Of a stretch of DNA of 64,000 nt, positions 4,652-30,284 are shown piece by piece (positions within the stretch are counted from its first letter, which is position 1; the number at the start of each line of letters is the position of its first letter). Both the position numbers and the translations under genes were made by a program. The notes under the pieces are model-generated. The model made no database searches. It was given only the letters and a program-made list of their open reading frames with translations, and was not told the origin of the DNA. The stretch is from an uncultured Gemmatimonadales bacterium (GTDB lineage Bacteria; Gemmatimonadota; Gemmatimonadetes; Gemmatimonadales; GWC2-71-9), in NCBI GenBank assembly GCA_963828735.1, contig CAWHFW010000005.1, positions 1,568,001 to 1,632,000 of the forward strand, in the 5' to 3' direction.

Positions 4652-4694
4652 AAAAAAGACGAAGGGGGCATGCCCGTTCGGCATGCCCCCTTCG
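4652..4694 (-). terminator. Intrinsic terminator, hairpin family copy 1
   Basis: Perfect 15-bp stem CGAAGGGGGCATGCC/GGCATGCCCCCTTCG (4660-4694), A6 at 4652-4657 (U-tract on -), between convergent genes. Confidence 0.85.
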
Positions 4695-4714
4695 CGTTGT
4701 ACGGCCCGGGCGAG

Positions 4715-5695
4715 CTACGGGGTGACGTTCATCTGCAGCGTCACGAGGGAACAGCCGATGGCCGTGTTGCATGCGACGACCTCGACGCCGGGACCCGTCA
4801 TCTCCCCGATCAGGTCGCCATTCTCCAGCCCGCTCGTGTAGTTGAGCGCCGGCTGCCCGAAGTACACGGTCCAGACGTTGGCCGGGAATGCGTTGTCGGT
4901 GCCGACGAGAATGCCCGCGCCGGTCGTCGTGTTGCTGCCACCATCGTAGATGAGCTGCGCCACCGGTGAACCGTTCGAGTAAAAGTTCATGACGCGGTTG
5001 CCGGTACCGTCGTTGGCCGTGAACAGCTGCGCCTGGGGCGCGAAGCTGAGCGAAAGCGACGTAGTGGTCGGACCGGTGCGCGCGCACTTGGTGTGAAACG
5101 GATGCGTGTCCTGGCCGCCCGGATTGATCCAGAGTCCCGGCTCCCCGGTCGCGGAGCTCTCGCAGGTGCCCTTGCCGTCGTTGCCCGGGGTGCCGCCGGT
5201 CCCGTAGTCCAGACAGTTCGGGTTGTTCGGGCCGAAGACGTTCCCGTCGGGATCGGTCCAGAAGCCCTTGGGCCCGCAGGTACCGACGCCGTAGAGGCCG
5301 GCCCCCGAGGTCTTGAAGACGAGCGCCGTGCTGCTGCCCGTCGTTCCGGCGGTGCCGCTGCCCGAGGTGTCGTACGCCGCCGGATCAACCGGCTCGATCG
5401 TCGGTGGCGTGCTGTCCCCCGGCGAAGTCCACGTCCCGTTGTTCACGGGATCGCCGGCGCCGGTCGTGTCGGATGTGAAGGTGGTATCGCCCGGGTTGGT
5501 CGAGGTGGTGTCGCCGGGATTGGTGGTCGTGGTGTCGCCGCCGCTCGTGCCGGGGAGGCCGCTGTCGCGCGGACCGCCGGGAACGGGGTTGTCGCGGGTG
5601 CCCGAGCCTGAAGGGGCCGTGAGGTTGTCGCTGTTGGAACAGGCCGTGATGGCCAGGACCGCCACGAGCCCGGCGGCGAGACGCATGCGGAGCAT
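4715..5695 (-). CDS. Uncharacterised secreted lipoprotein with G/T/D-rich linker and Cys-paired repeats
   Basis: SD AAGGAGA before ATG 5695; lipobox ITAC; GDTT repeats; six further Cys. Confidence 0.8.
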   Translation of the reverse strand: MLRMRLAAGLVAVLAITACSNSDNLTAPSGSGTRDNPVPGGPRDSGLPGTSGGDTTTTNPGDTTSTNPGDTTFTSDTTGAGDPVNNGTWTSPGDSTPPTIEPVDPAAYDTSGSGTAGTTGSSTALVFKTSGAGLYGVGTCGPKGFWTDPDGNVFGPNNPNCLDYGTGGTPGNDGKGTCESSATGEPGLWINPGGQDTHPFHTKCARTGPTTTSLSLSFAPQAQLFTANDGTGNRVMNFYSNGSPVAQLIYDGGSNTTTGAGILVGTDNAFPANVWTVYFGQPALNYTSGLENGDLIGEMTGPGVEVVACNTAIGCSLVTLQMNVTP

Positions 5696-5748
5696 GTGAT
5701 TCTCCTTCGACTTCACGAGGGTGACCCGGCACAGGTTGCCGGCATCGC

Positions 5749-5828
5749 CCCTTCGACAGCCAGGCTGTCTCAAAGAGACCCTTGGCTTTGCGGACCGGCC
5801 TCGCGGCCGGGGTGCCCTAGTCGAAGGG
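5749..5828 (-). ncRNA. c-di-GMP-I (GEMM-I)-fold riboswitch aptamer, U92 variant
   Basis: Minus strand CCCUUCG-ACUAGG-GCACC-CCGGCC-GCGA-GGCCGG-UCCGC-AAAGCCA-AGGGUCUC-UUU-GAGACAGCC-UGGCU-G-U-CGAAGGG: P1, GNRA-capped P2, CGCAAAGCC core and P3, with junction and P2 spacing matching the Vc2 aptamer. Confidence 0.85.
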
Positions 5829-5857
5829 TACGGACACAGGACTTCGGCACGATCTAA

Positions 5858-5873
5858 AGCAACCGCGGTGCCA
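5858..5873 (-). promoter_or_regulatory. Sigma-54 (-24/-12) promoter
   Basis: Minus strand TGGCAC-CGCGG-TTGCT, exact match to TGGCAC-N5-TTGCW; predicted +1 near 5847, just before the aptamer; AT-rich tract 5894-5917 upstream. Confidence 0.85.
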
Positions 5874-5991: not shown

Positions 5992-7446
5992 TCAGGCCTG
6001 GCCGATCGTCGGGCGCGAGTGGCTCACCAGCACGCCGCAAAGCCCGCCATGCTGCGCCACGTTCACCACCTGCTTTTGCGAGGCGCGGGCGAGGATCGCG
6101 ACCCCATCGTCCCCCGCCGCGAAGCCCATCACCGTATAGAACGGCTCGACGTGCACGTCACCGTCGGGACCGACGACCGGAAACTCGCGGACGGGAATCG
6201 TTGCGACCTGCTGCACGACCCAGCGGTCGTCGGTGTCTGCGAGTGCGGATCCGAGCGCGCCGTCCCATTGCTCCCGCGTGACCGCAGGCCCGATCACGAT
6301 CCCGTCGCCGCCATAGGCGCGGTTCGGTTTGAGCACCAGCGACTCGTGGTGGCCGCGCGCGTAGTCGAGCAGGTGACCGAGGCGGCCGTCTGGCAGCACG
6401 GTACGCCGGTCGCCGAGCACGCGAGTCCAGAGAATGTGCCGCTGAAACACCTGTCGCTCGGCAGGGGTGAAGTACTGCTGGCAGAGCCGCTGATCGGTGA
6501 GGACCTCCCAGCATGCCTTCTGGTCGAGGTCAGCGGTGATGGAGGAGATCATCCGGTTCTCGCGCAACAGCACCCGCATCGGCTCGATGTCCACCCCCTC
6601 AGCCTCGAGCTCGAGCAGGTCCACGACGCCGTAGTCCCGGTAGGCGACGTCGACGCGCTGGTCCCGATACCATACCGCTCCCTCGCGCAGCGAGAGCTCG
6701 GACGGATCGGCGTGCATCACGGTGAGTCCGTGGCGCTCATGCAGATAGTCAGCGATCTGCGCCTGCTCGTCCGGCCCGTTGCCGGCGTACTTGGGCTCCA
6801 CGAAGCACACGCCCGGCCCGCTCGAGATCGCCGTCATGTGCTCGATCAGCGCGGCGGCGAGCAACTCCCGGATGTCCTTCCCCACGGCGAGATCCAGCGC
6901 GACGTCCCCGTTCCTGAGTGCCGGCACCACGATGTCCTGGATCAGCCGCTCGCAGGTGGGCACGATGTGGAGTCCGCCGATGCCCATGAGGTTCGGCTCC
7001 ACGAACCGAAGCGACTCCTTCCACATGGGACTGGTGAAGTCCACCAGCGCGTCGAGCCGCCCAAACACGGGATTGGCCTCGTCATGACTCGCGGTCCAGC
7101 ACTGCCGGAGCCACGCCTCCTCCTCGTCCGGCAGGCGGAGAATCTCGCGGACGCTGAAGTCGCCGAGGTAGAGCGAGGGCAGCCGCTTGAGAGCGTTCTG
7201 CACCGTGAGCGTCACGTGGTGCACGTAGGCCAGCTGGTCGGGCAGGATGGTGATCGGTGCCGGCAGGATCCGGATGGGCTCGACTTCGCCCTCGTGCAGG
7301 TACACGACGTGGTGGGCAAGCGCGCCCGCGCGCAGGCGCTCGATGATCCCGGCCAGCTCGGCGGGCGCCAGGCGGGAGAGGGCATGCTGCACTCGGCTGG
7401 CGAGGGCCAGCCCGGCGAGGCCACGCTCCTCGGCGGGGGTCAGCAT
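5992..7446 (-). CDS. Circularly permuted ATP-grasp / glutathionylspermidine-synthase-like peptide ligase
   Basis: FGRLD, FVEPN, VDVAYR, DQKA, ILWTR, LVLKPNRAYGGDGIVIG, WVVQQ, ARAS...VVNVAQHGG motifs. Confidence 0.8.
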   Translation of the reverse strand: MLTPAEERGLAGLALASRVQHALSRLAPAELAGIIERLRAGALAHHVVYLHEGEVEPIRILPAPITILPDQLAYVHHVTLTVQNALKRLPSLYLGDFSVREILRLPDEEEAWLRQCWTASHDEANPVFGRLDALVDFTSPMWKESLRFVEPNLMGIGGLHIVPTCERLIQDIVVPALRNGDVALDLAVGKDIRELLAAALIEHMTAISSGPGVCFVEPKYAGNGPDEQAQIADYLHERHGLTVMHADPSELSLREGAVWYRDQRVDVAYRDYGVVDLLELEAEGVDIEPMRVLLRENRMISSITADLDQKACWEVLTDQRLCQQYFTPAERQVFQRHILWTRVLGDRRTVLPDGRLGHLLDYARGHHESLVLKPNRAYGGDGIVIGPAVTREQWDGALGSALADTDDRWVVQQVATIPVREFPVVGPDGDVHVEPFYTVMGFAAGDDGVAILARASQKQVVNVAQHGGLCGVLVSHSRPTIGQA

Positions 7447-7537: not shown

Positions 7538-9049
7538 ATGCACGCGGACAAGGCCTACGACGAGCTCATGCGGCGCGTTCGGGAGGAGACGCTCCTCACC
7601 GGCATCGAGGCGCTGCTCGAGTGGGACGAGGAGACGTACATGCCGTCGGGCGGCGTCGAGAACCGGAGCGAGCAGCTCGCGCTGGTGGCCGGCCTGCTGC
7701 ACGAACGGGGCACCGACCCGCGCCTCGGTGAGCTCCTCGCCGCCGTGGAAGGGTCGTCCTTGCTCACGGATCCGGCGGCGCCCGCCGCCGTCAACGTGCG
7801 CGCCGTCCGGCGGGAGTACGACCGGTTCGTTCGGCTGCCACGCACGCTGGTCGAGGATGTCGCCCGCACGACCGCGCTCGCGCAGAAAGCCTGGGCCGAC
7901 GCCAGGTCGGCCTCCGACTTCGCGCGCTTTCGGCCATGGCTCGAGCGGATCGTGGCGCTCAAGCGCCGCGAGGCCGAGTGCGTGGGGTATACCGGCGAGC
8001 CGTACGATGCGCTGCTCGAGGACTACGAGCCCGGCCTCAGCAGCGCCGTCGTGGGCCGGCTGTTCGCCGCGCTCAGGCGCGAGCTGGTACCGCTGGCCTC
8101 ACGGATCGCCGAGGCGCCACGGCGCCCGGACGCCGCGGTGCTGCGACGGCATTTCCCGCGCGACCGCCAGCGCCGCTTCGGTGAGCGGGTCGCCGGCGCC
8201 GTCGGCTTCGATTTTTCCCGCGGCCGCATGGACCTCGGCGTTCACCCCTCTTGCACCGGCATCGGCGCGGGCGATTGCCGCATCGCCGTGCGGTTCGACG
8301 AGCGCGACTTCGCCGGCGGCCTCTTCACCATCCTGCACGAGGTGGGACACGGGCTGTACGAGCTCGGCCTCGACCCGGCGCACTACGGGACGCCGCTCGG
8401 CGAGACTGCCTCGGTCGGCATGGACGAGGCGCAGGCCCGCTTCTGGGAGAACCGCGTCGGCCGGGATCGCGGCTTCTGGAACCACTTCTATCCCAGGGCG
8501 CGAGAGCTCTTCCCCGAGAGCCTGGGCGACGTCCCGATCGACGAATTTCACTTCGCGGTGAACCGCGTGACGCCGTCGCTGATCCGGGTCCAGGCGGACG
8601 AGGTGACGTACAACCTCCACGTGATGATCCGTTTCGACCTCGAGCGCGCGCTGATCGCCGGTACGCTCGCCGTGGCCGATGTACCCGAGGCGTGGGGCGC
8701 GGCCTGCCGCGAGAGCCTCGGTGTCGCGCCGCGCACCGACGCCGAGGGCTGTCTGCAGGACGGTCACTGGGCGGACGGGATGATCGGCTACTTCCCCACC
8801 TACACGCTCGGTGACGTGTTCGCGGCCCAGCTGTTCGACGCCGCCGAGCGCGAGCTCGGCAGCCTCGGCGAGCAGTTCGAGCGGGGAGAGTTCGAGGTGT
8901 TGTTGGGGTGGCTTGGCCGGCAGGTGTACCGTCAGGGAGGCCGCTATCCGTCCGCTCGCCTGATCGAGGTCGTGACCGGCTCTCCGCCGGATCACCGGCC
9001 GCTGGTCGGAATCCTCACGGCGAAGTACGAACAGCTCTACAGCATCTAG
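7538..9049 (+). CDS. Carboxypeptidase, M32 (Taq) family, divergent motifs
   Basis: WDEETYMP, YDALLEDYEPG, HEVGH, IRVQADE, GYFPTYTLG. Confidence 0.9.
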   Translation: MHADKAYDELMRRVREETLLTGIEALLEWDEETYMPSGGVENRSEQLALVAGLLHERGTDPRLGELLAAVEGSSLLTDPAAPAAVNVRAVRREYDRFVRLPRTLVEDVARTTALAQKAWADARSASDFARFRPWLERIVALKRREAECVGYTGEPYDALLEDYEPGLSSAVVGRLFAALRRELVPLASRIAEAPRRPDAAVLRRHFPRDRQRRFGERVAGAVGFDFSRGRMDLGVHPSCTGIGAGDCRIAVRFDERDFAGGLFTILHEVGHGLYELGLDPAHYGTPLGETASVGMDEAQARFWENRVGRDRGFWNHFYPRARELFPESLGDVPIDEFHFAVNRVTPSLIRVQADEVTYNLHVMIRFDLERALIAGTLAVADVPEAWGAACRESLGVAPRTDAEGCLQDGHWADGMIGYFPTYTLGDVFAAQLFDAAERELGSLGEQFERGEFEVLLGWLGRQVYRQGGRYPSARLIEVVTGSPPDHRPLVGILTAKYEQLYSI

Positions 9050-29694: not shown

Positions 29695-29854
29695 CGGACG
29701 CGCAACACCGCAGGTGGCGGGATCGGACCGTCATCCCAAGCGCAGGGGAGGGGCTTCTCCCCTGCGATTCGATCCTGCCCCCACCGACGACGTCAGGTCG
29801 TCCGATCCCCCTCCCGCCTTCTCCGCCCCTTTCCGAGCGTTATATTTCGCGCGC

Positions 29855-30223
29855 TGGCCGAGCGTGATGGTCGCGAACGCCTTCGGGCGTCTCGAGGAAA
29901 GTCCGAGCTCCAACGGGTAGACTGCCAGGTAACGCCTGGGCGCCGAAAGGCGACGGACAGGGCCACAGAAAACAGACCGCCCATCGGGCAACCGGTGGGT
30001 AAGGGTGAAACGGTGGGGTAAGAGCCCACCGCGCCACCGGCAACGGCGGCGGCACGGTAACCCCCAGTCGGAGCAAGGCCAAATAAGCGGCGAGGTGTGA
30101 CCCACACCGTGCTGGACCAGCCGCGGGTAGGCTGCTCGAGGTGGCCGGCGACGGCCATCCCAGACAGATGACCATCCCAGGCGCGCGAGCGCCGGGAACA
30201 GAACTCGGCTTACGGCTCGACCA
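29855..30223 (+). ncRNA. rnpB: RNase P RNA (type A)
   Basis: GAGGAAAGTCCGAGCTC, GCCACAGAAAACAGACCGCC, GGGTGAAACGGTGGGGTAAGAGCCCACC, GGAGCAAGGCCAAA, ACAGAACTCGGCTTA; P1 TGGCCGAGC/GCTCGACCA; TATATT -10 at 29841. Confidence 0.97.
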
Positions 30224-30284
30224 GTGGCGGCCCTCCAGACCTGGTTCGGAGGGCCGTCGAGCTTCCGACCCGACGAGGCCCTAC

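Follow-up and report, generated by a model that had tools for sequence, protein, structure and literature searches.

In the canonical c-di-GMP-I class, G20 is reported to read one guanine of the ligand while C92 pairs with the other (PMC6140456), and an A at position 20 has been described as the mark of the cGAMP type of the family (PMC6140456; PMC5888326). According to excerpts of the respective papers, the C92U mutation lets the Vc2 aptamer bind 3',3'-cGAMP (a review, PMC12032345) and lowers a Vc2-dependent sRNA 30-fold in vivo with partial recovery at high c-di-GMP (bioRxiv 10.1101/617340); Vc1 tolerates changes at position 92 (PMC4744006). Translational control by this class appears unsettled even in Vc1 and Vc2, as far as the excerpts go (bioRxiv 10.1101/617340; PMC4744006). 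The literature titles and abstract openings that were searched held no natural G20/U92 subclass (the primary papers may hold a mention), no study of c-di-GMP riboswitches in Gemmatimonadota and no P1-mimic ribosome-binding site (RBS) in the c-di-GMP-I class.

Here we describe a leader RNA from an uncultured Gemmatimonadales bacterium (GCA_963828735.1, contig CAWHFW010000005.1). The window, which is the whole stretch of DNA that was analysed, covers 64,000 nt (positions 1,568,001 to 1,632,000). The c-di-GMP-I fold is known; what would be new, judged from the sequence, is a natural G20/A47/U92 variant with a P1-mimic RBS. We propose, at a probability of about 0.55, that in the window this variant switches translation of a lipoprotein gene ON by strand exchange. 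C92U is a standard change in laboratory work on the c-di-GMP aptamer that has been studied most; here it occurs naturally and is fixed, the platform is intact, and the ligand is therefore directly testable.

Table 1. Positions of the leader elements and associated features (window coordinates unless a contig is given; aptamer residues in Vc2 numbering).
Feature	Position	Strand	Details or basis
Sigma-54-type promoter motif TGGCAC-N5-TTGC (-24/-12)	5859..5873	-	sequence
Degenerate 5' copy of the GUCGAAGG repeat	5841..5848	-	reads GCCGAAGU in the window
Strand a CCUUCGAC, P1 5' strand = anti-RBS	5820..5827	-	G14=5822, A15=5821, C16=5820
c-di-GMP-I (RF01051) aptamer	5752..5826	-	Rfam
Aptamer residues			G20=5816, C44=5792, A47=5789, G83=5765, U92=5756, C93=5755
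GCGA tetraloop of the aptamer	5804-5801	-	
Copy 2 GUCGAAGG, P1 3' strand	5750..5757	-	includes G91 and U92
Platform hairpin, 6 bp, variable loop	5726..5743	-	98.5% of cells paired
Strand b UCACCCUCG	5716..5724	-	conservation and MFE
Copy 3 GUCGAAGG fused to SD AAGGAGA	5701..5711	-	copy 3 itself 5711-5704
Predicted lipoprotein gene, 326 aa	4715..5695	-	AUG 5695-5693
Intrinsic-terminator-like hairpin 3' of the lipoprotein gene	4659..4695	-	
Asn/GGDEF enzyme (Asn at Hypr signature position, GGDEF motif)	G000:C5:1083629-1084099	-	relatives L220-L230

The leader and its aptamer

Among 82 loci of relatives, 36 share with the window a U92 aptamer and a copy of its P1 strand at the Shine-Dalgarno sequence (SD), giving 35 distinct leaders; 33 were aligned after one truncated and one near-identical leader had been left out. 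The TGGCA and TTGC elements of the promoter motif are invariant in 33/33, and in every aligned leader the aptamer sits between this motif and the AUG, followed by an expression platform, as expected of an RF01051 riboswitch. The usual spacing between sigma-54 promoters and their starts would put the +1 near 5848. No intrinsic terminator was found inside the leader of the window, and a transcriptional terminator platform was rejected on this ground. RNA data yielded relatives' contigs only, with small word shares; in run X1, a 596-nt contig covers 5816-5219, and being unstranded and possibly DNA it carries no evidential weight.

The encoded protein is predicted to have a lipobox Cys19, a disordered Gly/Thr linker and a beta-rich, Cys-containing domain. 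Searches of Pfam, Atlas and, with Foldseek at E 0.001, PDB folds returned no known domain. It belongs to a Gemmatimonadales family: of 148 homologues, the four that carry names are Gemmatimonadales hypothetical proteins. Elsewhere in the window lie an ORF with a weak, below-cut-off match to circularly permuted ATP-grasp (5992-7446, minus strand), an M32 carboxypeptidase gene (7544-9049, plus as translated) and a class A RNase P RNA (29854-30228, plus).

The RF01051 covariance model of Rfam matched the leader with 52.5 bits against a cut-off of 35 (E 2.1e-7), and the aptamers of four out of four relatives exceeded this cut-off as well, so that all five loci, the window included, are assigned to RF01051. 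The P1-P2-P3 three-way junction is present, with helices 92-100% paired and C44 and G83 invariant, and G20 and A47 occupy the pocket in 33/33. At position 92, where the class has C as the Watson-Crick partner of G-beta, all 33 leaders have U, and the triad of the window is thus G20/A47/U92 (GAU). Because C92 is replaced, we file this RNA as a variant of the c-di-GMP-I fold in which c-di-GMP sensing is putative. GEMM-Ib, with A20 and C92, does not fit the G20/U92 pocket, nor do c-di-GMP-I-UAU and c-di-GMP-I-GGC, whose names we take to be their pocket triads. The GCGA loop opposite a plain helix presumably marks the GYRA subtype, and we infer the tertiary contacts of the aptamer (GNRA loop/receptor) from its sequence.

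In folding calculations U92 can pair with A15, and C16 with G91, at near probability 1 whenever P1 forms; opening both pairs costs about 4.3 kcal/mol. The A15-U92 pair would therefore close the pocket. The first-pass annotation, which had the ligand stabilise P1, overlooked that both pairs must open and what this costs. We regard it as quite unlikely that, with U92-A15 closing the pocket, the RNA is a ligand-independent translational or stability element governed by temperature, a protein or a small RNA. Such a reading would agree with the closed pairs, with the 30-fold loss reported in vivo for Vc2 C92U, and with five orthologues that keep the RBS copy after losing the aptamer. It leaves unexplained why A18, G20, A47, A48, C44 and G83, which have no helix role, are invariant in 33/33, and the excerpts describe Vc2 C92U as still responsive to raised c-di-GMP and Vc1 as tolerant of changes at position 92 (PMC4744006).

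Repeats at the ribosome-binding site and their conservation

On the minus strand, CCUUCGACU (5827-5819) is exactly complementary to AGUCGAAGG (5712-5704), and the rival partner GUCGAAGGG lies at 5757-5749, as the first-pass annotation had read them; its hairpin CCGGCA (5742-5737)/UGCCGG (5731-5726) and the SD AAGGAGA (5707-5701) ahead of the lipoprotein AUG were also found in place. Of the 9-bp anti-RBS helix proposed there, eight base pairs are conserved (5827-5820 with 5711-5704) and the outer U5819-A5712 is not, position 5712 being A in 16/33. The proposed overlap with the SD holds for AAGG, which is covered, and not for the last AGA, which falls outside the helix. The number of such 9-mer complements expected in 60 nt of the source genome is 3e-4. 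Of 112 AAGGAG-ATG starts that lead into 100 open codons, only two follow a GTCG, and the lipoprotein gene has one of these. These figures indicate that the anti-RBS match is not due to chance, and the second of them also rejects GTCG as a generic SD context.

Strand a, complementary to both copy 2 and copy 3, is invariant in 33/33, and the P1 3' strand is so apart from one gap. In the GUCG upstream of the SD, both G's and the U are kept in 33/33 and the C in 32/33 (one U, with G.U kept), compared with 36-61% in the adjoining spacer columns; in 30 of the same genes, 1/66 four-fold codon sites was invariant. A18, G20, C44, A47, A48, G83 and U92 are invariant in 33/33, leaving the Y of the tetraloop as the sole variable among the core aptamer positions listed. 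The A49.C90 mismatch (29/33 orthologues) was considered as decay or a register shift and rejected, C90 occurring in 48/114 family aptamers. Strand b is invariant at 5/9 positions and at least 91% conserved at the remainder; its pairing with copy 2 holds at 98%, with three one-sided changes, the C-to-U changes keeping G.U. The platform hairpin shows one-sided G.U changes only, and P2 has one compensatory pair, G-C to A-U, in 5/33 leaders. P1 and the anti-SD helix (8 bp each) are 100% paired with zero two-sided changes. The invariance of the anti-SD helix could thus serve another constraint.

The loss of anti-SD pairing in homologues had been named as refuting the switch; instead, 33/33 leaders are fully paired. 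The claim that the aptamer is functional rather than decayed is borne out by U92, the core and the anti-RBS helix being kept in 33/33 against the 1/66 four-fold sites. The leader element is real and conserved, and it is probably functional.

The same design could be followed beyond the alignment. A duplex of the P1 5' strand with the SD at or below -10.5 kcal/mol was found in 36/36 scored aptamers of the U92 subtype, in 3/40 other family aptamers with an SD found (99 examined) and in 0/9 C92 sisters of the same subtype. The regex surveys, one source of the 36/36, overlooked many aptamers and listed some rows that were false; the control counts (other family aptamers, C92 sisters, C90 and pocket tallies) come from coordinate-based surveys, and the U92, family and sister sets are kin and hence non-independent samples. 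Three A92 sisters have UCCUGC as strand a and GCAGGAG twice, once in the P1 3' strand and once at the SD, which is the SD-copy design in other letters. They (L211:1492-1567, plus strand; L213; L214) have G20/A47/A92 with a displaced P1, lie between a sigma-54-like site and the gene of another lipoprotein, rich in Gly/Thr, and are possibly a further pocket variant.

That the repeats are left-overs of duplication and the anti-RBS pairing has no role is very unlikely. There are three direct copies, and the leader of L098 resembles a deletion between two of them, as such an origin would predict; their invariance relative to the 1/66 neutral sites, the 36/36 against 3/40 and 0/9 duplexes, and the same design in other letters in the A92 sisters all argue against it. 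A quick protein tree, from which losses were read directly, places five orthologues that lost the aptamer and keep GTCGAAGGAG among aptamer carriers, on end branches of 0.06-0.28; six truncated rows had been dropped, and rows L109 and L114 are apparently mistranslated through frameshifts. In these five (L098, L067, L107, L049 and L122) the aptamer is missing upstream of the lipoprotein and platform pieces remain, the deletion in L098 apparently lying between the 5' copy and the P1 3' copy. Both aptamer and RBS copy are absent from L108 and L110, which are in the tree, and from L104, outside it.

Predicted strand exchange and the direction of switching

The first-pass annotation described a two-way competition for the P1 5' strand. 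It had overlooked strand b, and we propose a four-strand exchange instead. During transcription P1 is predicted to form first. Once the SD has been made and ligand is lacking, strand b would capture the P1 3' strand, so that the small hairpin grows into copy 2. The P1 5' strand, now free, would pair instead with copy 3, its other perfect complement, across the SD while P2 and P3 stay folded. A ligand at the junction, proposed to be a cyclic dinucleotide, would hold P1 and leave the SD weakly paired; with P1 formed, strand b is predicted to pair only weakly with the SD or with itself.

Folding of the leader, which had been suggested as a check, gave an RBS-masked state without ligand and a more open one with P1 held. 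The MFE structure of the window combines a:copy 3 and b:copy 2, keeps P2 and P3, and is more stable than the P1 state by 2-4 kcal/mol; the anti-SD state is predicted to be more stable than P1 in 28/34 leaders. At equilibrium for each transcript length, P1 prevails until the SD is made, after which a:copy 3 forms at 0.84-0.99. Opening the SD at 37 C costs 3.0 kcal/mol in the P1 state, where it is still partly masked, vs 5.3 kcal/mol; the predicted ON effect in the window is 1.1-2.3 kcal/mol across all four settings, by nearest-neighbour calculations that contain no tertiary contacts and whose errors at 65-70% GC match the effect size. Relative to the ensemble, the P1 fold that is open at the pocket and competent to bind costs 6.6 kcal/mol, which is much to ask of a weakened pocket. 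Stabilisation by at least 8 kcal/mol is predicted to raise SD opening about 40-fold, from 0.00017 to 0.007.

The predicted direction varied with the 5' copy at the predicted +1. Leaders without a full 5' copy were predicted to be ON in 15/20 cases and OFF in 1/20, whereas the 13 with the full 8-mer gave 2 ON, 3 OFF and 8 neutral (mean effect 0.2 kcal/mol). Sequestration without ligand and release with it, as first proposed, are thus predicted for the window and for 15/20 leaders without a full 5' copy, but for only 2/13 with one. Among more distant homologues (n=7), one is predicted to lean OFF and one to be neutral; the HYR-gene leaders (n=3) all come out neutral, and the A92 sisters show predicted effects of mixed sign.

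It is unlikely that ligand controls translation in an OFF or lineage-dependent direction, in the manner of Vc2. Without ligand, the 5' copy would then hold strand a and the P1 3' strand would hold strand b, leaving the SD free; with ligand, P1 would form and release strand b onto the SD. Since copy 3 repeats copy 2, strand b is also able to pair with the SD; the leaders with the full 5' 8-mer (13/33) include the three that lean OFF, and a similar anti-RBS model has been proposed for Vc2, according to the excerpt available (bioRxiv 10.1101/617340). However, the pairing of b with the SD is bulged and weak, and the GU of copy 3 pairs solely with strand a yet is invariant. The 5' copy pairs with the P1 5' strand in 80% of alignment cells and with probability 0.0 in the window, where it is degenerate; with the copy decayed, an OFF switch may there have flipped or weakened.

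Ligand, relatives and known systems

If the window RNA acts as the proposed ON switch, two ligands compare evenly. The U92 variant may bind 3',3'-cGAMP, whose G would be recognised by G20 and whose A by U92; equally possible is c-di-GMP bound at reduced affinity. The source genome holds ten GGDEF matches and one DAC. One GGDEF enzyme has Ser at the base-reading position together with a GGDEF motif, a combination given in an excerpt as the Hypr signature (PMC6456294). A search of 13 other U92 genomes at E 1e-40 did not recover this Ser/GGDEF enzyme. An Asn/GGDEF enzyme (Table 1) occurs in 10 of those 13 and in the source genome, that is, in 11/14 searched.

We also surveyed the wider family. 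A DNA search matched 49/401 family genomes, and 23 of the 30 loci among the matches listed were parsed; the U92 pattern matched 4/401 phylum genomes. Among 114 family aptamers, which are a high-score-biased part of more than 340 matches, 57 were G20/C92, 48 A20/C92 and five G20/U92, one of these being the window. Seven further U92 aptamers precede distant lipoprotein homologues (45-54% identity among those measured, two ORFs being truncated); P1 varies in these aptamers, and GUCGAAGGAG is kept. Another four precede other lipoproteins, one of which was checked and contains HYR; the HYR-gene leaders were considered as independent covariation and found weak, since P1 also accommodates the pyrimidines of strand a and their SD has a local hairpin next to it. 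G20/U92 also occurs in other subtypes (L036, a tandem pair; L041, ahead of a gene that by resemblance is PilX-like; L188), so that U92 probably arose more than once in the family.

The source genome has 12 RF01051 matches, nine above the cut-off, and its pockets include G20/C92 and A20/C92. Five matches (L012, L008, L005, L009 and L006) cluster within 9 kb (G000:C5:1048203-1056704), each ahead of a different predicted lipoprotein or secreted protein. L003 (G000:C5:459397) and L007 (2524696) have C20/C92 and U20/C92 pockets, respectively. In L004 (G000:C5:1204069-1204152, minus strand; A20/C92) the P1 3' strand runs into the SD of a gene that is STAS-like by resemblance, an arrangement suggestive of direct OFF switching. 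The family often has A20/C92 aptamers in triple arrays, or A20/C92 and G20/C92 mixed in tandem (L142, L147, L130, L132 and L134), which suggests two-signal logic.

It is doubtful, though worth stating, that the G20/U92 aptamers form a mirror cGAMP subclass, separate in origin from GEMM-Ib and binding cGAMP in reverse orientation, with a P1-mimic RBS on sigma-54 lipoproteins and a polarity or gain reset by the 5' copy. If so, cGAMP signalling would operate in Gemmatimonadota, perhaps via the conserved Asn/GGDEF cyclase. With cGAMP as the ligand, a second, convergent route of cGAMP sensing would reach a major, mostly uncultured soil phylum; with weak c-di-GMP binding only, the RNA would belong to a known class, tuned in its affinity, and its interest would be modest. 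The compact leader offers about 45 natural variants for such work, with C92 and A92 sisters as controls.

Vc2 of Vibrio cholerae shares with the window RNA the P1-P2-P3 junction, G20, A47, the C44-G83 pair and the GNRA loop; in both, P1 is the switching helix and translational control is proposed. However, Vc2 switches OFF, and the anti-RBS proposed for it is a separate element, whereas here the P1 5' strand itself would be the anti-RBS, and Vc2 lacks U92, the possible A15-U92 pair, an SD that copies the P1 3' strand and a sigma-54-type leader. V. cholerae Vc1 (gbpA) follows the ON logic predicted for the window, and position 92 is not decisive there; by the same excerpt it has C at 92 and no apparent terminator or anti-SD (PMC4744006), unlike the explicit, conserved platform of the window. 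GEMM-Ib of Geobacter (A20/C92) has the same fold with one pocket base changed and likewise precedes surface or lipoprotein genes. The change lies at position 20 there and at 92 here, so that cGAMP would sit in the opposite orientation, and the pgcA switch of Geobacter uses a terminator, which the window leader lacks. The natural pocket variants c-di-GMP-I-GGC and c-di-GMP-I-UAU, which are compared by name only, belong to the same Rfam clan according to an excerpt (PMC12452182). The engineered Vc2 C92U carries the identical G20/A47/U92 triad, with reported 3',3'-cGAMP binding and a reduced c-di-GMP response; it is a laboratory mutant, whereas the variant in the window is natural, fixed in its clade and equipped with a platform of its own.
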